Shown: positions 1-62,676 of the stretch, in pieces
Layout of the letters: every line of letters begins with the position of its first letter
Position numbering within the stretch: the first letter of the stretch is position 1
Origin: Longimicrobiales bacterium
Lineage (GTDB): Bacteria > Gemmatimonadota > Gemmatimonadetes > Longimicrobiales > Gaopeijiaceae
Direction of reading: 5' to 3'
Assembly: GCA_965202985.1 (NCBI GenBank)
Contig: CBDBCF010000001.1
Location: forward strand, 2,560,001-2,624,000
Length of the DNA stretch: 64,000 bases
Translations under genes and position numbers: made by a program
The notes under the pieces: generated by a model
Told to the model about the DNA's origin: nothing
Database searches by the model: none
What the model saw: the letters and a program-made list of their open reading frames with translations, nothing else

Positions 1-38
1 CAGGTGCCGCTTGCCGGCGAGCGGCGAAGCGCTCGTGG

Positions 39-1172
39 TTGGCGGCTCCGCTGGTCGCCGCCCTGGTGGCGACATGCACGCAAGACGTTGTGGGGCCCGA
101 CTCGGGCTTCGTCTCCGTGGACGTTGCGGACGCCGAGGAGTGGACGCTCGAAGGCAGCCCGCTATTCGTGCTGGGCGACGACGAGGCCGACCCGCTGAGC
201 GGCGTGGTCGGCGGACTGCTGATGGACTCGGAACGAATCGTCGTGGCGGACCGAGGCAACTACCGGGTACTGGTGGTGGACGCCAAGGGCCGGACGGAGA
301 GAGTCGTCGGAGGGCAGGGCGAGGGTCCGCTGGAATTCACGACGATGACCATGTTCGCGCGGTGGCCCGGCGACTCGGTGTTCGTCTACGATTCCCGGGC
401 GAACCGGTATACCGTGTTCTCCGCCGCGACGGGCGAGGGTCGCAACACCACATTGCGCGGAACGGAAGTGGTGCCGGGCAACGCCCTGCCTGCTGGCGAC
501 GGCGAGCTGTGGCTGATCGGAGGTTTGCGGATCATACCCGGAGATTTTCGCCCAGGTCGACAGCGGGTTCCGATCGAACTCTTTCGCTACGTCGACTCCG
601 ACAGCATCCCGAAGGTCGCGGAGCTGGCTGGGCCGGAGGTGGTCTTCGGATCGGGCAGTGTCGGGTTCACGATGCCGCCGGTGCCCGTAGCGGCGGGAAC
701 CTCGCTGTCCGCCAGCGACGACAGGCTGTTCGTCTCGGACGGCGAGCGTCCGGTGGTTACCGTCCTGGATCGGACAGGCGCGACCGTGGGAGAGATCGAA
801 GTAGCCGGTTTGGATGTCGAAGTGACGGACGACCTGCGGGAGATGATCACGGACTCGCTGTACGCGAACGTCGCGCAAAACGAGGCGAGAATGCGGAGCC
901 GCCTCGAGAAGGCGCCGATTCCGGCGCAGCTCGACGGATTCGGCTTGATCCGCTTGGCCGGAGACGGCACCCTGTGGGTCGCCGGCCGCGGTGCGTCCGG
1001 GCTGGAGAGGCGGACATGGGTGAACATAGCCCTCGACGGGCGGCGGCTCCGCCGGTTCGATCTGCCGCGCTCGGTCAGCGTTCTGGATGCTTCCGCCGAC
1101 CGACTCCTACTGCGCAGAACCGACGCCGTGGGCGTGGAACGGGTCGAACTGCACGCGATCTCGCGCCGCTGA
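39..1172 (+). CDS. 6-bladed beta-propeller (NHL/TolB-like) lipoprotein; true start may lie upstream of the window
   Basis: Lipobox-like LVAT-C after a hydrophobic stretch; blade motifs IVVADRGNYRVLVVD, GGQGEGPLEF, VFVYDSRANRYTVFS. The frame is open back to position 3. Confidence 0.75.
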   Translation: MAAPLVAALVATCTQDVVGPDSGFVSVDVADAEEWTLEGSPLFVLGDDEADPLSGVVGGLLMDSERIVVADRGNYRVLVVDAKGRTERVVGGQGEGPLEFTTMTMFARWPGDSVFVYDSRANRYTVFSAATGEGRNTTLRGTEVVPGNALPAGDGELWLIGGLRIIPGDFRPGRQRVPIELFRYVDSDSIPKVAELAGPEVVFGSGSVGFTMPPVPVAAGTSLSASDDRLFVSDGERPVVTVLDRTGATVGEIEVAGLDVEVTDDLREMITDSLYANVAQNEARMRSRLEKAPIPAQLDGFGLIRLAGDGTLWVAGRGASGLERRTWVNIALDGRRLRRFDLPRSVSVLDASADRLLLRRTDAVGVERVELHAISRR

Positions 1173-1197
1173 CCGCTTGCCGATAGTCGATCTCCCC

Positions 1198-2244
1198 ATG
1201 ACACCTTCGCCCACGCTCCCATCCGCCCTGCTGGCAGCGGCAATCGCCCTGTCTTGGTGGGCACCCCCCGCGTCCAGTCAGGAAGTCCAGCGGATCCAGC
1301 GCGCCGAAGGAGCGGACACTTGGTCGCTGCGACTCGAAGAAGTCCTCGCGGTCGGGTCGATGGAGGAGGGCGACGCGTTGTTCGGCCGCATCATGGACGT
1401 CGCCTGGGACGGCCGAGACCGGATTCTTGTCGCGGACGACTTGGGGCCGCACGTCAAGGTGTTCGAGTCGGACGGAACGTACGTCCGCACGATCGGGCGC
1501 GAAGGAGACGGCCCAGGGGAGTTTTCCTTGCCGTGGCAGATGGCCGTGGACGCGAGCGACTCGCTTTACGTGTGGGACGCCGCGCAGTCGCGCATCTCGG
1601 TCTTCTCGCCCGATCACGACTTCATCCGGAGCATTTTGGTCTCGCCGGCGTGGGTCGTCACCTCCATGGAGGTTCCGGCGCCCGATCGGATCGTCGTGGC
1701 CGCGTTCGCTCCCGGCGAGACGCTGCCCGTCAAGGTCCTGGACAAGGAAGGGGCCGTCCTACGCCAAGCGGGCAGAGCCATCGAACCGGCCGACTTGGCG
1801 GGACACGCCGGAAGCCTGCTCGGCGGGTCGCTGGCGCGAGTCGAAGGCGGCTACGCGTACACGAACAAGAGTCCGTGGGCCGTCACTTGGTTCGACCGCG
1901 ATCTGCGGATTGTGCGCACCTGCGTCGGCCCTTCGGAGTGGACGACCCCCCCGGGCGACGCGGTTCAGCGGACCGATCGAGGCGTGGGGCTCGCATGGAA
2001 CAGGTACGTCCACTCCGCGTCCATCGTGGGACTGCCGGGGGGCGTGGTGCTCAATACGATACTGGACCCGGCGGCCGACGTTCGCGTCCTGCACCTGGTG
2101 ACGCCGGATTGCGTGATCAAGTCGGAGATCAGGCTGGAACTTCCGGTCACGCCGACCCTGGCCAAGGGTGATCTGGTTGCGGCCGTGCGCAGCCTGGACT
2201 ACCACGAGGTGGTTCTGTACCGCGCCGCCACGGCCAGCCGCTAG
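1198..2244 (+). CDS. Secreted 6-bladed beta-propeller (NHL-like) protein
   Basis: ATG at 1198 gives a signal peptide (MTPSPTLPSALLAAAIALSWWAPPASS). Motifs ILVADDLGPHVKVF, IGREGDGPGEF, LYVWDAAQSRISVFS. Confidence 0.8.
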   Translation: MTPSPTLPSALLAAAIALSWWAPPASSQEVQRIQRAEGADTWSLRLEEVLAVGSMEEGDALFGRIMDVAWDGRDRILVADDLGPHVKVFESDGTYVRTIGREGDGPGEFSLPWQMAVDASDSLYVWDAAQSRISVFSPDHDFIRSILVSPAWVVTSMEVPAPDRIVVAAFAPGETLPVKVLDKEGAVLRQAGRAIEPADLAGHAGSLLGGSLARVEGGYAYTNKSPWAVTWFDRDLRIVRTCVGPSEWTTPPGDAVQRTDRGVGLAWNRYVHSASIVGLPGGVVLNTILDPAADVRVLHLVTPDCVIKSEIRLELPVTPTLAKGDLVAAVRSLDYHEVVLYRAATASR

Positions 2245-7293: not shown

Positions 7294-7588
7294 CGACCCG
7301 GCCCCCGCCAGCGGGCCGGAGATGGAGACGCTGGAGGCGGCCGTGGACCGGGCTGTCGCCGAGCTGCGGACCGCGCGCAAGCGGGCCAGCGAGGCGGAGG
7401 AACGCGCCGACCGCGGCGACGAGCTGCTCCGCGAGTTCGTGGACGGCAAGCAGGACCCGGCCGCGCTGTCGCGGAAGGTGGCCGAGCTTGAAGCCGAGAA
7501 CGAGGCGTTGCGGTCCCGCATCCGTCAGGGGCGGCAAGGGGTCGACCAGATTCTGGCGCGCATCCGCTTCTTGGAGGACCGACGATGA
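7274..7588 (+). CDS. ZapB-like coiled-coil cell division protein
   Basis: 104-aa heptad-rich helix, SD AAGGAG at 7261, located between pheT and zapA. Confidence 0.65.
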   Translation: MSNRGADDPAPASGPEMETLEAAVDRAVAELRTARKRASEAEERADRGDELLREFVDGKQDPAALSRKVAELEAENEALRSRIRQGRQGVDQILARIRFLEDRR

Positions 7589-8172
7589 CCGCTTCGGACG
7601 GCGACGCCCGCAATACCGTGCGCGTGACGATCGCCGGCGAGGACTACACGATCCGTACCGAAGCCGACGAGGACTACACGCGGCGATGCGCAACCCTGGT
7701 CGATCAGCGGATGAAGGCGATCGCCGGCGAAGGCACCGCCGGGGCCGCCCAGACGCGGGCCGCGATCATGGCCGCCCTGTCTATCGCCGACGACCTGTTC
7801 CAGCAAAAGGCCCGCACTCGCCAGCGGGCGCAGGAGCTGGCCAAGCGCGTGGAGGAGGCGTTGCAAGAGGACGGTGCGACGGGAGGCTCGGGGGGAGCGA
7901 ACGACTCGAAGGGAGGCCTGGGAGCGAAGGGCGACGCGACGGGAGCTCCGAGCGTGCGGGGCGACTCGCCAGGAGCCCACGGCGCAAGGGACGACATGGC
8001 GACTGCCCCGTCGGCCGCCGAGTCGAACGACTTTGTCGCAGGCGACCTTTCCCCGTCGAACGCCGCCGAGTCCGGCTTTGCCGCAGGCGACTTTGTCCCC
8101 GCGGACGCTGCCGAGTCGGACGACTTCGCCCAAAGCGACTTCGTCCCGCCGGACGCCCCGCCCGAGGACTGA
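7585..8172 (+). CDS. zapA: Cell division protein ZapA with ~100-aa repetitive acidic C-terminal extension
   Basis: VRVTIAGEDYTIR...VDQRMKAI...AAIMAALSIADDLF matches the ZapA core; ATGA overlap with the upstream gene. Confidence 0.85.
   Translation: MTASDGDARNTVRVTIAGEDYTIRTEADEDYTRRCATLVDQRMKAIAGEGTAGAAQTRAAIMAALSIADDLFQQKARTRQRAQELAKRVEEALQEDGATGGSGGANDSKGGLGAKGDATGAPSVRGDSPGAHGARDDMATAPSAAESNDFVAGDLSPSNAAESGFAAGDFVPADAAESDDFAQSDFVPPDAPPED
7876..8155 (+). repeat. Two degenerate coding tandem repeats in the zapA tail (~30-bp x4 and ~45-48-bp x3)
   Basis: DSKGGLGAKG/DATGAPSVRG/DSPGAHGARD, then AAESNDFVAGDLSP/AAESGFAAGDFVP/AAESDDFAQSDFVP. Confidence 0.7.
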
Positions 8173-8181
8173 CTCCCCACC

Positions 8182-9450
8182 ATGCCGCCCGCCAAGGACG
8201 CATCCCGCTTCAGTCGCCGTCGCTGGCTAGCATCGGCCTCCGGAGCGACGGCTGCCGCCTGGGCCATGACCCGCGCCGACGCCTTCGCCGCGGCCCCGTT
8301 CCGGCAGCAGCCCTTGTCCCCCGACCCGACCAAGGTCCCCGGGCGCTTCGTCTCCGAGGTGGGCCGTCGGGCGCCGGGCGAACAGCCGCGTCGCCTGATC
8401 CGCGCCCAGGCGCTGTCGAGCTCGTCGCGGACGCCCCTTCACGAGTTGCAGGGCACGATCACTCCCGCGGACCTGCACTTCGAGCGCCATCACGCCGGGG
8501 TCCCCGAGATCGCGTCCCAGGACCACGAACTGCTCGTCCACGGGATGGTCGAGCGTCCAATGGTCTTTCGCATGGCGGACCTGAAGCGGTACCCGCAGGC
8601 GTCGCGCATCTGCTTCGTCGAGTGCTCGGGCAACGGCGGCGGAGCCTACAGCCGCGACCGGATGCCCACCGAGATCACCGCCCAGCAGCTGGACGGGCTG
8701 ATCAGCACCAGCGAGTGGACCGGCGTCATGCTCTCCACGATCCTTCGCGAGGTGGGCGTTCGTCCGGGCGCGAGCTGGCTCTTGGCCGAGGGCGGAGACG
8801 CCGCCGTGATGGGCCGCAGCGTCCCGCTGGAGAAGGCGAACGACGACGCAATGCTCGCCTACGGCCAGAACGGCGAGGCGATCCGCCCCGAGCAGGGCTA
8901 CCCCGTGCGGCTCCTGCTGCCCGGCTGGGAGGGCAACGCCCAGGTGAAGTGGCTGCGGCGCATCGAGGTCACCGACCGCCCGACGATGACCCGCGACGAG
9001 ACCTCGCGCTACACCGACCCCCTGAAGGACGGGACCGCCCGCCAGTTCAGCTTCGTGATGGACGCCAAGTCGGTGATCACCTTCCCGTCGTACCCCTACG
9101 TCCTGCCGGAGCGGGGCTGGTGGGAGCTCTCGGGACTGGCCTGGACCGGACGGGGCCGCGTGACACGGGTCGACGTGAGCACCGACGGCGGGCGTTCCTG
9201 GACTCCCGCGCAGATGCAGGGGCCGGTGCTGCCCAAGTCCACCGTCCGCTTCCGCCACCTCTGGCGCTGGGACGGCCGCGAGACCGTGATCATGAGCCGC
9301 GCCACCGACGAGACCGGCTACGTGCAGCCCACCGTCCAGCAGCTCTGGCAGGCCCGGGGCGAAGGAACCACGTACCACCACAACCACCAGCGCGCCTGGA
9401 AGATCGCCGCCGACGGAGCCGTCACCTTCGGCCTGGGGGAGTTGGTGTGA
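8182..9450 (+). CDS. soxC: SoxC-like molybdopterin sulfite/sulfane dehydrogenase, Tat-exported
   Basis: Tat motif SRRRWL; ITPADLHFERHHAG; Mo-ligand context VECSGNG; EWTGV; YGQNGEAIRPEQGYPVRL; SRATDETGYVQP. Confidence 0.88.
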   Translation: MPPAKDASRFSRRRWLASASGATAAAWAMTRADAFAAAPFRQQPLSPDPTKVPGRFVSEVGRRAPGEQPRRLIRAQALSSSSRTPLHELQGTITPADLHFERHHAGVPEIASQDHELLVHGMVERPMVFRMADLKRYPQASRICFVECSGNGGGAYSRDRMPTEITAQQLDGLISTSEWTGVMLSTILREVGVRPGASWLLAEGGDAAVMGRSVPLEKANDDAMLAYGQNGEAIRPEQGYPVRLLLPGWEGNAQVKWLRRIEVTDRPTMTRDETSRYTDPLKDGTARQFSFVMDAKSVITFPSYPYVLPERGWWELSGLAWTGRGRVTRVDVSTDGGRSWTPAQMQGPVLPKSTVRFRHLWRWDGRETVIMSRATDETGYVQPTVQQLWQARGEGTTYHHNHQRAWKIAADGAVTFGLGELV

Positions 9451-9539
9451 GGGGCGGCGCGCCGTCGCGCCGGCGGAGCCTGTCGCCCTGTTCCCGCCCT
9501 GTCGCCGCGGCCGCTTCCGAAAGCGCTCGAACGGCCTCC

Positions 9540-10154
9540 ATGCGAGCGGCGCTTGCACTGGCGGCAATGGTCGTCCTTGGTGGATGCGGCAGCCCGCCCG
9601 ACGAAATCCCCGGCAACCCGTCCGTTTCGCCCGTTCTGTCCAGCGTCCCCGTTGCGCCCCCGAGCCTCCCCGATCACGCACCCGACCGGTTCGGCTTCGG
9701 TTCGGCCGCCTCCGAAGCGCGCGTCGCCCTCTGGGACATTGACGTGAAGCCCGACGGCGAGGGGTTGCCGCCCGGAAGCGGCTCGGTGGAGGAAGGCCGC
9801 CGCCTCTACGAGGTCCAGTGCATGGCGTGCCACGGCCCGACCGGAACCGAGGGTCCCAACGAGCGGCTCGTGCCAGACGGTGATTGGGAGCAGTGGCCGC
9901 AAGGGCGCACGGTCGGCGGCTACTGGCCCTACGCCACGACACTGTTCGACTACGTGCGCCGGGCCATGCCCCAAGCGACTCCGGGCTCCCTGTCGGACGA
10001 CCAGGTCTACGCCGTCTCCGCCTACGTCCTCCATCTGAACGGCCTGCTGCCCGCCGACGCCGCGCTGGACTCGGCTTCCCTGGCGGCAGTGGAGATGCCC
10101 GCCCGCAACCGCTTCGTCCCCGACGACCGGCAAGGCGGCCCGGAGGTGCGGTGA
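9540..10154 (+). CDS. soxD: SoxD-like monoheme cytochrome c lipoprotein (alternative start GTG 9447)
   Basis: Lipobox LGG-C; WDIDVKPDGEGLPPGSGSV; heme motif CMACH; TVGGYWPYATTLFDYVRRAMP; MPARNRF. Confidence 0.8.
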   Translation: MRAALALAAMVVLGGCGSPPDEIPGNPSVSPVLSSVPVAPPSLPDHAPDRFGFGSAASEARVALWDIDVKPDGEGLPPGSGSVEEGRRLYEVQCMACHGPTGTEGPNERLVPDGDWEQWPQGRTVGGYWPYATTLFDYVRRAMPQATPGSLSDDQVYAVSAYVLHLNGLLPADAALDSASLAAVEMPARNRFVPDDRQGGPEVR

Positions 10155-10191
10155 CAGGCGAAGCCCACGCTTGAAGATGACTTCCAGAGTT

Positions 10192-10207
10192 TGGCACGTA
10201 AATTGCT
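10192..10207 (+). promoter_or_regulatory. sigma54 (-24/-12) promoter
   Basis: TGGCACG-TAAA-TTGCT matches TGGCACG-N4-TTGCW exactly, 60 bp upstream of the peptide ATG. Confidence 0.85.
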
Positions 10208-10220
10208 GTGTACTGGCGCG

Positions 10221-10239
10221 TCGCGACACGGTGTCGCGA
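10221..10239. repeat. Perfect inverted repeat just downstream of the predicted sigma54 start site
   Basis: TCGCGACAC-G-GTGTCGCGA. Confidence 0.8.
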
Positions 10240-10267
10240 AAAACACGTCCCAGCAAGGGAGGCAAAG

Positions 10268-10519
10268 ATGGAGAAGCACCGGCAGATGAGGCTGTTCGCC
10301 ATGATCGCGTCGTTCCTGGCGCTTCTGGCGGCAGGTGCCTGGGTCCAACACCTGGGCGCGGAAGACGACGGAGGCTGCGACCACGGGGAGTGCGAGCACA
10401 GCCACCGTCGCTTCTGGTTCGACAGCCACAAGTGCGTTCCGAACGAGAACGACGTGGCCTGTGGGACCGACCAGTCGGAGCAGCACGGCTGCGAAACGAC
10501 CAGCTGCGGCGCTGCCTAG
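10268..10519 (+). CDS. Secreted cysteine-rich peptide (83 aa; ~31-aa signal, ~52-aa mature part with 6 Cys)
   Basis: SD GGGAGG before the ATG at 10268; hydrophobic core FAMIASFLALLAAGAW; predicted cleavage LGA|EDD; Cys spacing C-x4-C-x13-C-x8-C-x9-C-x4-C. Confidence 0.8.
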   Translation: MEKHRQMRLFAMIASFLALLAAGAWVQHLGAEDDGGCDHGECEHSHRRFWFDSHKCVPNENDVACGTDQSEQHGCETTSCGAA

Positions 10520-10521
10520 CT

Positions 10522-11700
10522 GTGGAACAACGGTCGAAGACGAGAAGCCGCCTCGGTGGGCTCATCGTGACGGCGGGCTTGGCCCTGGCGTGCGGCCAAG
10601 AAGGACTGCGCGAAGGCGAGGTCCTTCATCCCACGGCCCAGAACGCTTTGCCGGACGACGCAGCGGTGATCACCAGCGATACGCTTCCCGCGGGACTCTC
10701 CCCGACGGCGCTGGCGGCATGGCGGGAGACGCGAAACGCCCTTCTCGGGTCTGTCACGCAACTCCAACTCGGGGCGGACGATTCGTCAGGCCCTGATGCC
10801 TTTGGTCGAGTTTGGGACGCGGCCGTGGCGGGTCCCTCCGGGCGGCTGTTCGTGCTCGACGAAATCGACCAGGAGATCCGCGTCTTCGATCGCGATGGAC
10901 GCTTCGTAGGCCGTACAGGCGGAATCGGAGACGGACCGACCGAATTCCGATACGCCAACGGAATCGAGATGCTTGGCGACGGGCGACTGGTTGTGTCCTC
11001 CCGGGGTTCCGTTCAGCTGAAGGTGCTGGCGGAATCAGGGTCCGGCTGGGAGCTGGACGCGACGATTCAGCTCCCGGCCGGTCCCGACGATCTTTGTTCC
11101 ACTCCCGACGGGCGGGTCTTCCTTTCCGGCTACAAGCGCGAAGGCAATACTCTGGTGCACGAGGTTGCCGTGACGGAGGGCTCGTCAACCCAAGACTTCG
11201 GGGAAGGCTACCTTGCCGACCACTGGCTGGTCGAACACCAGCTGGCGCCGGGAAGGCTCGCATGCACGGAAGAACAGGGTCCGGTGATGTTCGCTCACGA
11301 GTTGCTCCCGTGGGTGCGCGCGTTCGATCGGGATACCGGTCGTCTGCTGTGGACCGCCGAAATCGAGGACTTTCTGTTGCCGATGGTCGTGTCGAGAGTT
11401 CGGTCCGACGGACGCCACGCAGTGCGACGCGGCCGAACAGAGGTCGAAGACATAGTGGCAGCCCTGCACGCAGTGTCGTCCAACCATCTGCTGTTGCAGG
11501 TCTCGCGATTCCGTGCTAGCGGAAGACAGGTGAGCGTGCGCAGCTACCTTCTTGACGCCGCGACCGGGCTTGGGGCGAGCCTCGGGGACGATGCACTGCC
11601 TCCCGTCGTGTCTACCTTTCCCGGTGGTTATGTCGCCGTCTTCGAGGATCCCTACCCTCGCCTCGAAACGAGGGTCTTCGGCGACGGTGGAGGTCTGTGA
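10522..11700 (+). CDS. 6-bladed beta-propeller lipoprotein
   Basis: GTG 2 nt after the peptide stop; basic N-terminus then lipobox LALA-C; LFVLDEIDQEIRVFDRDG, GGIGDGPTEFRY. Confidence 0.8.
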   Translation: MEQRSKTRSRLGGLIVTAGLALACGQEGLREGEVLHPTAQNALPDDAAVITSDTLPAGLSPTALAAWRETRNALLGSVTQLQLGADDSSGPDAFGRVWDAAVAGPSGRLFVLDEIDQEIRVFDRDGRFVGRTGGIGDGPTEFRYANGIEMLGDGRLVVSSRGSVQLKVLAESGSGWELDATIQLPAGPDDLCSTPDGRVFLSGYKREGNTLVHEVAVTEGSSTQDFGEGYLADHWLVEHQLAPGRLACTEEQGPVMFAHELLPWVRAFDRDTGRLLWTAEIEDFLLPMVVSRVRSDGRHAVRRGRTEVEDIVAALHAVSSNHLLLQVSRFRASGRQVSVRSYLLDAATGLGASLGDDALPPVVSTFPGGYVAVFEDPYPRLETRVFGDGGGL

Positions 11701-12329
11701 CGGTGTTGCGCGGGAATCGAAGGCAGTGGGGTTGGATTGCGATTTTCGCGTGCATGGGAGCTCCGGTCGGATATGGACTAGCGTGGGCAGGACTGATTCC
11801 AGACGTGCGCGTCGACTGGCCCGTCGGCCTGCGCGGGAGGGAGTCGTACACGCCCTCCGGCACCCTGTCTTCTGGCACGGAGGTTGTCCTGGTCTACGTC
11901 GGGTCCTCAACCTGCGCCTGGTCGAACGTGCCGAGATTGCCCAAGTTGGTCGAAGAGCTCAAGCTCACGCTTCAGGCGAGGGCGAAGTCCGAAGGCAAGA
12001 CCTTCTTCACGGTTGGCGTTGCCCGCGATCTCGAATCGGACCGAGGCCTTCGTCACCTGGAGGACTTCGGGACGTTCGACGAAGTGATGTCGGGCGGCAG
12101 TTGGATCAATACTGGTATTCTCAAGTACATCTTTGACGACCTGCCGGGTCCCGCGGCTACCCCGCAACTGGTCCTCTTGGAGCGCTTGGTCGAGGTCCGC
12201 GAGGGGAACTATTCCATCGCGGACGAACGAATTCTGGCCCGGGCTGTCGGACTTGAGGAAATCGACGAATGGGGCGCCTCGTGGGCGAGAAGCGGCACCG
12301 CGCCCGACCGCGGGACACGAGGTCGGTAG
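11697..12329 (+). CDS. Membrane-anchored thioredoxin-like protein with CxxS motif
   Basis: GTGA overlap with the propeller gene; N-terminal hydrophobic segment; strand VVLVYVG followed by STCAWS; TVGVARD strand; ATPQLVLL cis-Pro-like loop. Fold assignment is inferred. Confidence 0.65.
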   Translation: MTVLRGNRRQWGWIAIFACMGAPVGYGLAWAGLIPDVRVDWPVGLRGRESYTPSGTLSSGTEVVLVYVGSSTCAWSNVPRLPKLVEELKLTLQARAKSEGKTFFTVGVARDLESDRGLRHLEDFGTFDEVMSGGSWINTGILKYIFDDLPGPAATPQLVLLERLVEVREGNYSIADERILARAVGLEEIDEWGASWARSGTAPDRGTRGR

Positions 12330-12428
12330 TTCGGGTCCCAGGTCGTCCCTTCCGGCCGGTCGGCCGGGCGCTGGTGGCTGGCTAGCGACCTGCCGACGGC
12401 GCGATCTCCCCGCTCCGCTCGTTGCCGC

Positions 12429-59848: not shown

Positions 59849-60117
59849 TGGGAGCCGGAAGCGCCGTTGGCCGCCTCCGCCAGCATGGCGTCCCCCGTCT
59901 CGCACTCCGCCACGGCATGGCCCACCTGCACCAGCTGCTCGGGACCCATCGCCCCCACCAGACCCTCCAGACGTTCCGCCGTCTCCGCTCCGAACTTCCG
60001 CGACGCCTGCCGAAGCACCATCTCCCGGTGACCTCGGGCCACGCCCTGCTTCACGCCCCTCGCCATGCCCCTGCGCTCGTGTCCCTCCACCCACTCCTCG
60101 TAGTACGTCTGCCCCAT
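59845..60117 (-). CDS. Putative internally initiated small Rpn isoform (RpnS-like, 90 aa)
   Basis: In-frame ATG at 60117 preceded by AGGAGG (60131-60126) with an 8-nt spacer. Confidence 0.55.
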   Translation of the reverse strand: MGQTYYEEWVEGHERRGMARGVKQGVARGHREMVLRQASRKFGAETAERLEGLVGAMGPEQLVQVGHAVAECETGDAMLAEAANGASGSH

Positions 60118-60987
60118 CTCCAACGCCTCCTCTGGTTGAATGATCCCCTGCACGATAACCTCCCTCCGCTCCGCCGGCACGCCCGCCGCTCGCATCCGCT
60201 CGTCCGTCCACTGTGCGAACGCCTCCCGGAACGAGCGATGCGCCTCCCCGGCCTGCTGCCCCGCCAGCGAAGCGTACACGCACGGAAAGGCCGCCCCCAG
60301 CGGCGCCCGCTCCAACGCGCCCAGCCACCCCAGCAACGAGTCCGCCGGCAGCGTGCCCTCCGCCGACGCCGACTGCAAGTCCAGCACGACGCACCGGTGC
60401 GCGGTGCCAAAGCCGGCTACGGCGCGCACCACGGCCGGCGGCGGTGCCGGAGTGCGCGTTAAGGCGGCCAAGCTCGTCTCCGCAGGCCAGCGCTTCGGAC
60501 CGGTATGGAGGACACAGGAGAGGAGCAAGGGCACGGTGCCACCGGGGTCCAGCATCTTCGGGTTGGCCCGCAGCGCCTCGACCATGCCGACGGCGTAGTC
60601 CAAGGTGCGAAGCGCCATGTCGGGATCGTGGGACGCCTGGAATTCGACTAGGAAGACGACCGAGGCCTTGCTGTCCTTGAACCAGACGCGGAGGGCGAAG
60701 TCGGCCAGCCTGCGCTTGAGGCCCTTGGAGATCGTCTCGGTGGCGACGACCGCGGCGGTGTCGAGGTCGAGGTGCTCGTGCCACTCGACGGCCAGGAAGT
60801 CGCGGATCAGCGACTCGATTGCTGCGCCGTGGGCGAAGAGGCCCTTGTAGGTCTGGTCGTGCCGACGATGCTCGCGCTCTTCGGGCTCGTCGTCCCGGGG
60901 GTCGCGGATGGCATCGGCGTCGTGGTCGGTCAGGTGGGACGAGTCGAGGGCTTCGGGCAGTCGGGTCTCGTTGGGGGATCGGTCCAT
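59845..60987 (-). CDS. Rpn-family (recombination-promoting nuclease/putative transposase, PD-(D/E)XK) protein; start uncertain
   Basis: HDQTYKGLF, RRLADFALRV, VFLVEFQASHDPDMALR, VLHTGPKRW; C-terminal G.x3 repeats (RGMARGVKQGVARG) and RQASRKFG. Confidence 0.85.
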   Translation of the reverse strand: MDRSPNETRLPEALDSSHLTDHDADAIRDPRDDEPEEREHRRHDQTYKGLFAHGAAIESLIRDFLAVEWHEHLDLDTAAVVATETISKGLKRRLADFALRVWFKDSKASVVFLVEFQASHDPDMALRTLDYAVGMVEALRANPKMLDPGGTVPLLLSCVLHTGPKRWPAETSLAALTRTPAPPPAVVRAVAGFGTAHRCVVLDLQSASAEGTLPADSLLGWLGALERAPLGAAFPCVYASLAGQQAGEAHRSFREAFAQWTDERMRAAGVPAERREVIVQGIIQPEEALEMGQTYYEEWVEGHERRGMARGVKQGVARGHREMVLRQASRKFGAETAERLEGLVGAMGPEQLVQVGHAVAECETGDAMLAEAANGASGSH

Positions 60988-61280
60988 TGGGCGAGCGGCC
61001 TTCCGGCGGGGGTTCCATGCCGCATCTCGGGAGCTCGGGAGCCGGGGGACCGGCCCGCTCCTCTGGACGGATACCCAAACGATGGGGCCGAAAGCTGGGC
61101 GTTTGGATAGCTGCTTGGGACACACTTCTCGCCGGACGTCTCGGGACTACCGCGAATCCGTGCCAAGCCCCTTGTCGTGCAACGGATTTCGCACGCTCCC
61201 GGCGGCGGAGTTTCCGCCTCGGGGGCCAATACGCGGACCCCGGCCGCGCGAGAGCGGCCGACCCCAAGCGTCCCGGGTCT

Positions 61281-62615
61281 TTACCCTCCGCGCCGACGGA
61301 CCGGGCGTTTGGCCGGAGCCCGCTTTCCCCCTGGGCGCGACGGAGCCGGTCGGGCCTTCGGCGGTGGGCGCCGGACGACTGGCCGGGCCTGGGCGCGCGG
61401 CCGCGTCGCTGGGGCCTTCCGAACCTTTGGCGCCGAACCCCGCGGTTGCGGGCGCACCGTCGCTGGCGAACGTCTGGATGGCGTTGCCGGTCGGGCTTGC
61501 GGGCGCCTCGTCGGGGTCGTCGGTCTTGTTTGCGGCAGGCGCCTCGTCGGCGTTGCCGGTCGTGTCTGCGGCGAACGTCTGGATGGCGTTGCCGGCGTTG
61601 CTTGCGGTACGCGCCTTACGGGTGGTGTCGGACGTGCCTGCGGCCTGCGCCTTGTCGGAGCTGGCCGCGCTTCCTGCGTCGGCCGGGGGCGTGCACCCGC
61701 CCGTACGTCCGGGCGCGCCGGGGCGCGAGGCGCCGCTTCGGGGTTGCTCGCCCGCGTGCGAGGCCGTGCCTTGCGGCGTTCCGGAGAAGATGGATTCGCC
61801 CGGATGTTGTCCCGGGTTGCCGGCCCTATTCTCGGAACGGCCCGGCGCAGCGGCGAAACCTTGGACACCGGTCGCTCGGGGCCGTTGTCGGTTACGTAGA
61901 CTCTGGGGTCTTCCTTGAAGCGCGGGCCGAAGAGGGGCGACCGCCGCCAGACGCGGTCCCTGCCACCGGCGTATCGCCCGGGGCGCACATGACCGGAACC
62001 CGGACGGCGCCAACCGGCGCGGCCATAGTCCCAGCGGCTCCAGCCATGATCCCAGCGGTCCCAGCCATAGGCCCACCGGTCCCAGCCGCGACCCCAACCG
62101 CCCCAACGACCCGGCCCAGCCCAGGCGTGCCCCCACCGACCCCACCGACCCCCGCGGACCCATCGCACGGGAATGGCCCAGCCCCACGGATCGTACCGCC
62201 ACCCCCAGCCGCCGCCCCTCGCGTACCAGCGCGACGGCCAGCCGACATGGACGAACGGTCCCCAAGACAGGTAGCTGCCGACATGGTGCCAGCCGCAGCC
62301 GACCAACGGGTACGGTTCGTGCTGGAGCCAATACGGATCGCCCCAGTACGGATCGCCCCAGTACGGGTCGTCCCAGAGGCCGTGCCCGCAATGTGCGCGA
62401 CCGTGGCCGAGTCCCCCGTCAAAGCCGAGCGAGACCACTGTCGCCGGCCCCGATCGATACGCCAGCCCCACGCCGAGTCCGCTCCACGGCGCAACGGACG
62501 GGGCGCCGACCGCGAGGCCGATTCCCAGCGATACGTGGCTTGCCACCTGCGCCGTGGCGGACATCGGAACCAGAATCCCGACCGCCGCCGACAAGAGCTT
62601 CATCCCGAGCTTCAT
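61281..62615 (-). CDS. Secreted protein with Trp/Gly-rich repeats and an Arg/Pro-rich disordered tail
   Basis: SD GGAGGAGG; signal MKLGMKLLSAAVGILVPMSATA|Q; W(D/G)DPY x3, GW(D/S)RW x3, PATP(S/T)RR repeats; upstream sigma54 site. Confidence 0.75.
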   Translation of the reverse strand: MKLGMKLLSAAVGILVPMSATAQVASHVSLGIGLAVGAPSVAPWSGLGVGLAYRSGPATVVSLGFDGGLGHGRAHCGHGLWDDPYWGDPYWGDPYWLQHEPYPLVGCGWHHVGSYLSWGPFVHVGWPSRWYARGGGWGWRYDPWGWAIPVRWVRGGRWGRWGHAWAGPGRWGGWGRGWDRWAYGWDRWDHGWSRWDYGRAGWRRPGSGHVRPGRYAGGRDRVWRRSPLFGPRFKEDPRVYVTDNGPERPVSKVSPLRRAVPRIGPATRDNIRANPSSPERRKARPRTRASNPEAAPRAPARPDVRAGARPRPTQEARPAPTRRRPQARPTPPVRRVPQATPATPSRRSPQTRPATPTRRLPQTRPTTPTRRPQARPATPSRRSPATVRPQPRGSAPKVRKAPATRPRAQARPVVRRPPPKARPAPSRPGGKRAPAKRPVRRRGG

Positions 62616-62660: not shown

Positions 62661-62676
62661 AGCAATTTGCGTGCCA
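62661..62676 (-). promoter_or_regulatory. sigma54 (-24/-12) promoter
   Basis: Minus strand TGGCACG-CAAA-TTGCT, 45 bp upstream of the ATG at 62615. Confidence 0.85.

Follow-up and report, generated by a model that had tools for sequence, protein, structure and literature searches.

A widespread three-gene cassette encoding a six-cysteine peptide, a propeller lipoprotein, and a thioredoxin-like protein in Gemmatimonadota and Rhodothermia

RESULTS

A three-gene cassette is inserted at a variable site upstream of rny

Within a 64,000-nt stretch of the genome of a Longimicrobiales bacterium (contig CBDBCF010000001.1, positions 2,560,001 to 2,624,000; the whole stretch is referred to here as the window and the bacterium as the host), we analyzed a three-gene cassette upstream of rny. 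The cassette encodes the precursor of a small peptide with six cysteine (Cys) residues, a lipoprotein with an NHL-type six-bladed propeller, and a protein with a thioredoxin (Trx) fold. Based on sequence features and structural models, all three products are predicted to be targeted to the cell envelope. The locus has the following features in window coordinates.

10155..12405, no strand: insertion, approximate extent, between the cytochrome c gene and the rny leader, from comparison with same-genus genomes
10191..10207, + strand: sigma54 −24/−12 promoter-like element, 61 nt ahead of the start codon of the peptide gene
10258..10262, + strand: Shine-Dalgarno sequence GGAGG of the peptide gene
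10268..10519, + strand: gene for the six-Cys peptide precursor, 83 amino acids (aa), ATG start
10522..11700, + strand: gene for the NHL-type six-bladed propeller lipoprotein, 392 aa, GTG start
11697..12329, + strand: gene for the Trx-fold protein, 210 aa, with a predicted N-terminal membrane helix

As described in a first-pass annotation of this DNA, the three genes are tightly coupled, with a gap of 2 nt between the peptide and propeller genes and a GTGA overlap between the propeller and Trx genes. The same annotation described the cassette as less GC biased than its neighbors. This holds for the GC content of the cassette (0.63 to 0.66 versus 0.71 to 0.74 in the flanking genes) and for the GC content at third codon positions (GC3) of the propeller and Trx genes (0.71 to 0.75 versus 0.84 to 0.93 in the flanks), but not for the peptide gene, the GC3 of which is 0.87 and, thus, not low. 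Two runs from one sample, possibly the source sample, each contained a single contig that matched the cassette DNA without any difference.

The cassette was originally placed between zapA and rny. While the rny side of this placement is correct, genes for a molybdopterin oxidoreductase and a cytochrome c (8182-10154, +) lie between zapA and the cassette. This gene pair, which is presumably SoxCD/SorAB-like and lies inside the pheT-zapA-rny region, is common to two of three same-genus genomes and has no counterpart in two other genera; in the third same-genus genome, rny alone was matched within the stretch examined. In the same-genus genome G002, the two cassette flanks are joined directly, giving an empty site, while in the same-genus genome G003, the site is occupied by a different, reverse-strand propeller-like open reading frame (ORF) (L170:7110-8036, −). 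These comparisons identify the cassette as a recent, mobile, lineage-specific insertion of ~2.25 kb at a variable site. Elsewhere in the host, a decayed second trio lies on contig 2 (689700-691600, −) near a sequence that is tRNA-like by resemblance; it comprises a signal-peptide remnant without a core, an intact cassette-type propeller gene, and a frameshifted and partly deleted Trx gene.

The trio is conserved across lineages

Members of the Trx family were present in 62 of 401 genomes of the host phylum, in 49 of 201 genomes of the class centered on Fodinibius roseus, and in 2 of 301 genomes of the phylum centered on a Solibacteraceae genome. From the host phylum, we used 87 of the 95 Trx matches; the eight matches left out comprised seven on short contigs or near contig ends and one repeat copy. 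Together with loci from other searches, this gave 128 loci, of which 114 were kept after dropping 14 duplicates; some near-identical strains remain among the 114.

A six-bladed propeller gene was present on the same strand in 98 of the 114 Trx loci and directly adjoined the Trx gene in 81, compared to a background of 6% of random 5-kb strand windows in the propeller-rich host genome. Using a strict rule for six-Cys signal-peptide ORFs, we identified such an ORF on the same strand in 76 of the 114 loci and on the opposite strand in three. A wider peptide scan gave 84 and three loci, respectively, and two of the three opposite-strand ORFs resemble real divergent peptides. The first-pass annotation had proposed this neighborhood comparison and had named a rarity of Cys-rich ORFs upstream of homologs as an outcome that would speak against its proposal; the 76 versus three loci are the opposite outcome. 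Among the 95 loci with full flanks, 59 had both partners under the strict rule.

Because the peptide rules and the propeller profile were derived from the same 114 loci on which they were scored, we applied them unchanged to 40 further loci, i.e., one locus from each of 39 of the 49 positive genomes of the F. roseus-centered class and one from the Solibacteraceae-centered phylum. In this held-out set, a propeller gene was found in 31 loci, a peptide gene in 22, and both in 21, while no peptide gene was on the opposite strand. Without two repeats of earlier loci, the values for this set, which is mostly Rhodothermia, were 29, 21, and 20 of 38, respectively. Ten short metagenome loci contained nine propeller and five peptide genes.

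In the Trx tree (a fast tree of 107 rows with several long branches), loci with the trio are scattered among many branches; in one clade, the peptides in six of eight rows have a C-x-C framework. It occurs in Gemmatimonadota, in Rhodothermia (Rhodothermales and a Fodinibius genome), and rarely in Acidobacteriota, and the cultured strain Fodinibius roseus DSM 21986 (locus L132) carries it. No curated family matched the trio as a unit. The three-gene system proposed from the window is, thus, a conserved unit across these lineages and a real, widespread, and unannotated module.

The peptides share a six-Cys scaffold with a variable loop

The window precursor has a predicted Sec signal peptide (residues ~1-31) followed by an acidic mature part of 52 aa with Cys residues at positions 37, 42, 56, 65, 75, and 80 (spacing 4-13-8-9-4), an RRFWFD loop, five His residues, a single Trp, and a net charge of about −9. 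It had no match to a Pfam, NCBIfam, or PDB family. Similarly, 56 aligned mature cores, with leaders excluded, had no Pfam match, including to NVEALA (PF14055), and the link to NVEALA-type loci that had been drawn initially is not supported.

The commonest core frame is C-x4-C-x(4-13)-C-x(7-9)-C-x(6-10)-C-x4-C, and the x4 spacing at its two ends is present in 76 and 77 of 99 cores, respectively. E and D are favored after the first Cys, making C-E-x-D the commonest core start (E in 40 and D in 33 of 77), and T is favored before the fourth and last Cys. The loop between the second and third Cys (Cys2-Cys3) is the most variable part, with an aromatic cluster in 23 and an RxWFD-like motif in 9 of 100 cores. 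Of 100 cores, 89 carry a negative net charge and three a net charge of at least +3, while 51 are without His and 33 without Trp.

The closest relative of the window peptide (locus L128) has a core that is 86% identical, with a proportion of synonymous differences (pS) of 0.68, which is near saturation, and a proportion of nonsynonymous differences (pN) of 0.11. In all 15 close peptide pairs, pN was lower than pS, supporting that the peptide ORF is a real, functional gene, as originally called, and indicating at the sequence level that it is under purifying selection.

Among 76 loci, a single peptide gene is paired with a single propeller gene in 42, and two to three divergent peptide genes accompany one propeller gene in 8. 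At four loci (L057, L048, L050, and L202), three or four divergent six-Cys peptides are encoded around a single Trx gene. The host encodes five strict six-Cys peptides, all of which adjoin a propeller gene, and the window peptide alone adjoins an intact Trx gene. Separately, we observed four host genes for Cys-rich secreted proteins directly 5′ of propeller genes (contig 2, 247394-249115, 257465-259014, and 524446-526001; contig 1, 2870137-2872854); three of these four proteins have an RRFWFD, FWFD, or FWPD loop as in the window peptide on another cysteine scaffold.

No conserved catalytic or metal-binding set is evident in the propeller alignment

The window propeller matched PF17170 (DUF5128) with an E value of 1.4e-6, above the curated cutoff, and its predicted model (predicted local distance difference test [pLDDT] 95) gave NHL six-bladed domains as best fold matches, with PAL, SOQ1, and NHLRC2 lower. 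The fold matches also include eukaryotic six-bladed propellers that bind Cys-rich modules (LRP4-agrin and nidogen-laminin). Both the cutoff and the fold place the protein among DUF5128/NHL six-bladed propellers, within which the cassette propellers are a subfamily of their own without a model of its own. The window protein has a lipobox-like sequence (LALAC24), an H36-P37 motif, an N-terminal helix, and conserved C192 and C248. Among 71 cassette propellers, which are net negative with a median charge of −12, the lipobox Cys is present in 82%, the H-P motif is conserved, and the two further Cys are present in 69 of 71 each. In the sequence alignment of these proteins, H36 (59/71) and H213 (44/71) are the conserved His residues, with no others. 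PAL-type lyases have a Zn-binding His triad with catalytic Tyr/Arg; in the alignment of the 71 cassette propellers, no conserved His triad, metal set, or catalytic set is evident. This argues against modification of the peptide by the propeller, which was among the roles suggested at first.

The Trx-like proteins are mostly of the CxxS type

In the AlphaFold2 model of the third protein (pLDDT 91), a membrane helix (residues 8-30) is followed by a Trx fold with the active site C73-A-W-S76 (STCAWS) and a cis-Pro-type loop at TP156. The protein had no Pfam or NCBIfam match. In Foldseek searches, TlpA/DsbE/Sco structures were nearest with modest E values of 2e-4 to 1e-3, and its Atlas neighbors were AhpC/TlpA-like. 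It shares the Trx fold, the N-terminal active Cys, and the cis-Pro loop with TlpA/DsbE-like oxidoreductases but has CAWS in place of their CxxC dithiol. The family comprises 1,674 clusters at 50% identity. All of 141 aligned top members have Cys at the C73 position, while at the resolving position 105 have Ser, 15 have Cys, and 14 have Ala. PF13905 was touched by only 2 of the 141 members, and the family is therefore without a Pfam model of its own. The TlpA/DsbE-like fold and the invariant first Cys agree with the original reading of the protein as a CxxS thioredoxin. At locus L096 (2752-4545, −), a single frame of 597 codons encodes a fusion of a Cys-less, membrane-anchored member with a six-bladed propeller.

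The sigma54 site is credible in the host and rare in related loci

The sequence TGGCACG-N4-TTGC at 10192-10206 matches the sigma54 consensus without mismatch. The host genome contains 12 perfect sites, compared to ~1.8 expected and zero to five at other spacings, and encodes RpoN and three full-length activator domains in addition to weaker matches. Most of the 12 sites are located ahead of genes for proteins with export signals, including outer-membrane barrel-like proteins, two TonB-dependent transporters, propellers, and Cys-rich proteins. These observations uphold the consensus promoter that had been reported upstream of the cassette. However, a site was present upstream in only 3 of the 114 related loci and 1 of the 40 held-out loci, and this comparison does not support sigma54 control as a trait of the system. 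Judged from these sequences, the site is credible in the host genome, yet it is not a conserved feature of the cassette. Its left edge is 37 nt from the insertion edge, and any activator site would therefore fall inside the upstream gene.

A subgroup of loci includes a TonB-dependent transporter

Among the recurring neighbors of the 114 and 40 loci, we found no conserved modifying enzyme, protease, exporter, or other partner. Thus, a modifying enzyme or recognition element (RRE) beside the precursor, as for peptides made by ribosomes and modified posttranslationally (RiPPs), does not recur in these neighborhoods. Near the 114 loci, there are DsbA-like genes at 14, signal peptidase S26 genes at 8, extracytoplasmic function (ECF)-like genes at 14, ATP-binding cassette (ABC) permease genes at 12, and kinase/regulator pairs at 8; the DsbA-like and signal peptidase neighbors fit envelope maturation. 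The host genome encodes a separate DsbA-VKOR pair.

In ~12 loci from close kin (L023, L029, L031, L040, L041, L043, L044, L045, L049, L052, L085, and L103), the operon order is peptide, TonB-dependent transporter, lipoprotein, propeller, and Trx. The lipoprotein in these operons is Pfam-less, ends in a GYFGA motif, and is presumably DUF4249-like. In five more loci, a TonB-dependent transporter gene directly follows the Trx gene. In a transporter-anchored search, the upstream peptide gene was intact in 10 of the 14 loci of the top clade, with one more cut by a contig end and one more with a Cys-to-Tyr variant, in a clade that consists of close kin and overlaps the loci used for building the query; none of the 16 lower-scoring loci had a peptide gene. 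The transporter is absent at the window locus, in most of the 114 loci, and in all 40 held-out loci.

DISCUSSION

A thioredoxin without a resolving Cys can shuffle or hold disulfides, but it cannot oxidize on its own. Based on the monothiol Trx protein and the separate DsbA-VKOR pair of the host, we favor, with a probability of about 0.5, that the cassette encodes a fold-and-hold module, in which an unmodified three-disulfide miniprotein would bind a target with its variable loop. We infer the following route for its export, oxidation, binding, and end function. The peptide would be exported by Sec and cleaved by signal peptidase and then oxidized by the DsbA-VKOR pathway of the cell. The inner-membrane-anchored CxxS enzyme, being without a resolving Cys, would proofread or temporarily retain thiols and likely reshuffles the disulfides of the peptide outside the cytoplasm. 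The peptide would then be passed to the propeller lipoprotein, which would carry or display it, likely keeping it bound as a ligand or as a small subunit. Finally, the fixed Cys scaffold would present the variable Cys2-Cys3 loop, here RRFWFD, for recognition of a target protein or surface. By reading the scaffold, the machinery would be able to serve several peptides, and the choice of target would lie with the loop. In our best reading of the sequences, the miniprotein would be a binding ligand rather than a cationic pore-forming bacteriocin. In favor of a fold-and-hold module are the linkage of the three genes, also at the held-out loci, the propeller gene beside each of the five host peptides, the scatter of the trio over the Trx tree, the divergent peptides that share one propeller, the invariant first Cys with Ser or Ala at the resolving position in 119 of 141 members, the neighbors that fit envelope maturation, the fusion at L096, and the ligand cleft described for the same two folds in NHLRC2. 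The first-pass annotation considered the system self-contained; the conserved trio stands, but the term goes too far, because the monothiol Trx protein cannot oxidize alone and the DsbA-VKOR pair is encoded separately.

Several observations weigh against a fold-and-hold module. Cys-less Trx family members occur in trios or fusions (L068, L099, L096, and L061), suggesting that thiol chemistry is not always needed. Under the strict rule, 22 of the 95 full-flank loci have only the propeller gene, 6 only the peptide gene, and 8 neither, although some of the 22 gain a peptide gene in the wider scan. The host has ~90 propeller matches and five six-Cys peptides, suggesting that most of its propellers work without a peptide, and four of the five peptides are without an adjoining Trx gene of the cassette family. 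Peptide similarity tracks propeller and Trx similarity alike (rho 0.57 and 0.58; partial 0.21 and 0.24, respectively), for which coinheritance alone would suffice. Lastly, the neighborhood comparison revealed no conserved route across the outer membrane.

AGR2 and ERp44 are examples of CxxS thioredoxins. We consider it doubtful, if conceivable, that the cassettes are a bacterial counterpart of eukaryotic secretory Cys-rich ligand systems, with an ERp44/AGR2-like monothiol Trx protein proofreading three-disulfide miniproteins and a propeller lipoprotein displaying or receiving them. If they are, the fixed scaffold would give each cell a modular set of binding loops that can be exchanged for one another, this set would be wired to a dedicated TonB-dependent transporter in some lineages, and the cassettes would amount to an unrecognized natural library of knottin-like binders with a portable folding catalyst.

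Relation to known systems

By analogy, the cassette would work most like pediocin/PedC-type clusters, yet it fails their defining features. The bacteriocin clusters for pediocin PA-1 (PedC), sublancin (BdbAB), and thermophilin (BlpG) are described, in the available part of the source, as having a dedicated thiol-disulfide oxidoreductase (PMC4919988). Like these clusters, the cassette combines a small peptide, presumably exported and disulfide bonded, with a Trx-fold accessory gene of its own. In contrast to them, the cassette Trx proteins are mostly CxxS monothiols rather than CXXC proteins, the signal is of the Sec type, there is no conserved ABC transporter or peptidase, the six-Cys cores are anionic, a propeller lipoprotein is a near-constant partner, and the hosts are diderm. 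Class II bacteriocins have a cationic amphipathic core and a double-glycine leader with an ABC transporter-peptidase; here, the core charge is about −9, with 89 of 100 cores negative, and the leaders are hydrophobic and Sec type.

One operon, the mauA/mauB/mauD/mauE cluster for methylamine dehydrogenase, encodes a small subunit rich in disulfides, a large subunit that is a propeller, and a maturation factor that is thioredoxin-like. The cassette has the same combination of a small, presumably disulfide-rich product, a propeller, and a thioredoxin-like factor; however, its propeller is a six-bladed NHL lipoprotein, there is no Tat signal, and its peptide is hypervariable. Instead of the two Trp required for tryptophan tryptophylquinone (TTQ), the mature window peptide has one; MauE was not found in the host, and no partner such as MauG recurs. 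The DUF5128 (PF17170)/NVEALA (PF14055) loci of Bacteroidota also have a PF17170-passing propeller adjoined by a small signal-peptide gene, but the cassette peptides are without an NVEALA match, and the propeller subfamily and the Trx family are without models of their own.

In the available part of the report on NHLRC2, a conserved ligand cleft is described between its Trx-like and NHL propeller folds, and the bacterial homologs are described as having no conserved neighbors (PMC6107167). SOQ1, according to the part of the source available, is a membrane-anchored, extracytoplasmic protein with fused Trx-like and NHL propeller domains (10.1101/2024.11.01.621559). The cassette brings together the same two folds, NHLRC2 and SOQ1 are both among the propeller fold matches, and the cassette Trx protein, like SOQ1, is predicted to be membrane anchored and extracytoplasmic. 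However, the two folds are encoded by separate genes (except for the Cys-less fusion at L096), and the active site is STCAWS rather than a CC(I/V)NC motif, such as CCINC, in a single chain. Moreover, the cassette is a conserved putative operon with a peptide gene, unlike the bacterial NHLRC2 homologs as described. Another source describes small, acidic proteins with lanthanide cargo that occur beside TonB transporters (10.64898/2026.07.10.737718); these appear to be a different system, set apart by their description in the available part of that source rather than by sequence.

Alternative explanations

An antimicrobial peptide with immunity, in which the miniprotein would be set free to poison competitors, the Trx protein would mature the peptide as PedC does pediocin, the propeller would neutralize it, and orphan propellers would form an immunity library, seems unlikely to us. 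It would account for the patchy, mobile, and decaying cassette copies, for the ~90 propeller matches versus five peptides in the host, and for the one-to-one pairing in 42 of 76 loci, and dedicated Trx-fold accessories for pediocin, sublancin, and thermophilin, as described in the available part of PMC4919988, offer a precedent. However, with 89 of 100 cores anionic, only three at +3 or above, and propellers that are also net negative (median −12), the charges do not fit; neither do the lack of a conserved ABC exporter or leader protease among recurring neighbors, the sharing of one propeller by two to three divergent peptides in 8 of 76 loci, and pN below pS in all 15 close pairs. BtuG and XusB, two transporter lids, have a propeller fold. 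A nutrient or metal shuttle, in which an acidic peptide would bind a metal or other cargo, the propeller would capture the peptide, and a TonB-dependent transporter would be fed, much as BtuG and XusB supply their transporters, would explain the transporter-containing operons in ~12 loci, the transporter after Trx in five, and the intact upstream peptide in 10 of 14 top-clade loci. The C-E-x-D core start and the five His of the window peptide would also suit cargo binding, and lids for such transporters are described in the available part of another source (10.1101/2023.03.17.533168). Nevertheless, we regard a shuttle as quite improbable, given that the transporter is absent at the window locus, most of the 114 loci, and all 40 held-out loci, that no peptide accompanies the transporter at the 16 lower-scoring loci, that the top clade is close kin overlapping the query-building loci, and that 51 of 100 cores are without His.

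We assign still less weight to a cell-to-cell signal, with the peptide as a pheromone, the propeller as its receptor, redox activation by the Trx protein, and ECF or two-component genes reading the signal. The ECF-like genes near 14 and the kinase/regulator pairs near 8 of the 114 loci, the lineage-specific loops on a fixed scaffold, and the fold matches to LRP4-agrin and nidogen-laminin propellers agree with it, but there is no conserved regulator, none in the window cassette, and none recurring in the held-out set, and the lipoprotein has no transmembrane signaling part. Lastly, the propeller could be a peptide-modifying enzyme (a PAL-like lyase or one that makes a quinone cofactor like that of the small subunit of methylamine dehydrogenase), or the Trx protein and the propeller together could be a split, SOQ1-like redox enzyme with the peptide as its substrate. 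This appears very improbable: no conserved His triad or Arg/Tyr set is evident in the alignment of the cassette propellers, Trp occurs once in the mature window peptide and is absent from 33 of 100 cores, no MauG-like gene recurs at the 114 or 40 loci, and no MauE was detected in the host genome, which is 92% complete.

Significance

In the literature searched, we found no description of the trio and neither of the terms DUF5128 and NVEALA. Bacteria are not known to make many multidisulfide miniproteins of the kind seen in venoms or among hormones. Here, >100 divergent miniproteins have a scaffold in common and the same set of two partner proteins, which annotation misses. A fold-and-hold module would provide a testable role for a Pfam-less Trx family with >1,600 clusters and a way to approach the many DUF5128-type propellers in Gemmatimonadota and Rhodothermia that lack an explanation. 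Genetic and proteomic work is feasible because F. roseus DSM 21986 carries the trio. Should the Trx protein be a dedicated isomerase, it might be useful for producing disulfide-rich peptides.

Other features of the window

Propeller genes are arranged in a tandem array at 1-2244 (+) and upstream (host contig 1, 2556132-2562244), in which no peptide was detected by the strict six-Cys rule. ZapA (7585-8172, +) has a 100-residue C-terminal extension, part of which is encoded by three imperfect 45- to 48-nt repeats at 8014-8157. An ORF at ~59850-60990 (−) appears to resemble Rpn-family recombination-promoting nucleases; a similar ORF is on host contig 2 (254552-255847). A second perfect sigma54 site (62662-62676, −) is located ahead of the gene for a secreted 444-aa protein (61281-62615, −) that comprises a Trp/Gly-rich part and a Pro/Arg-rich tail.

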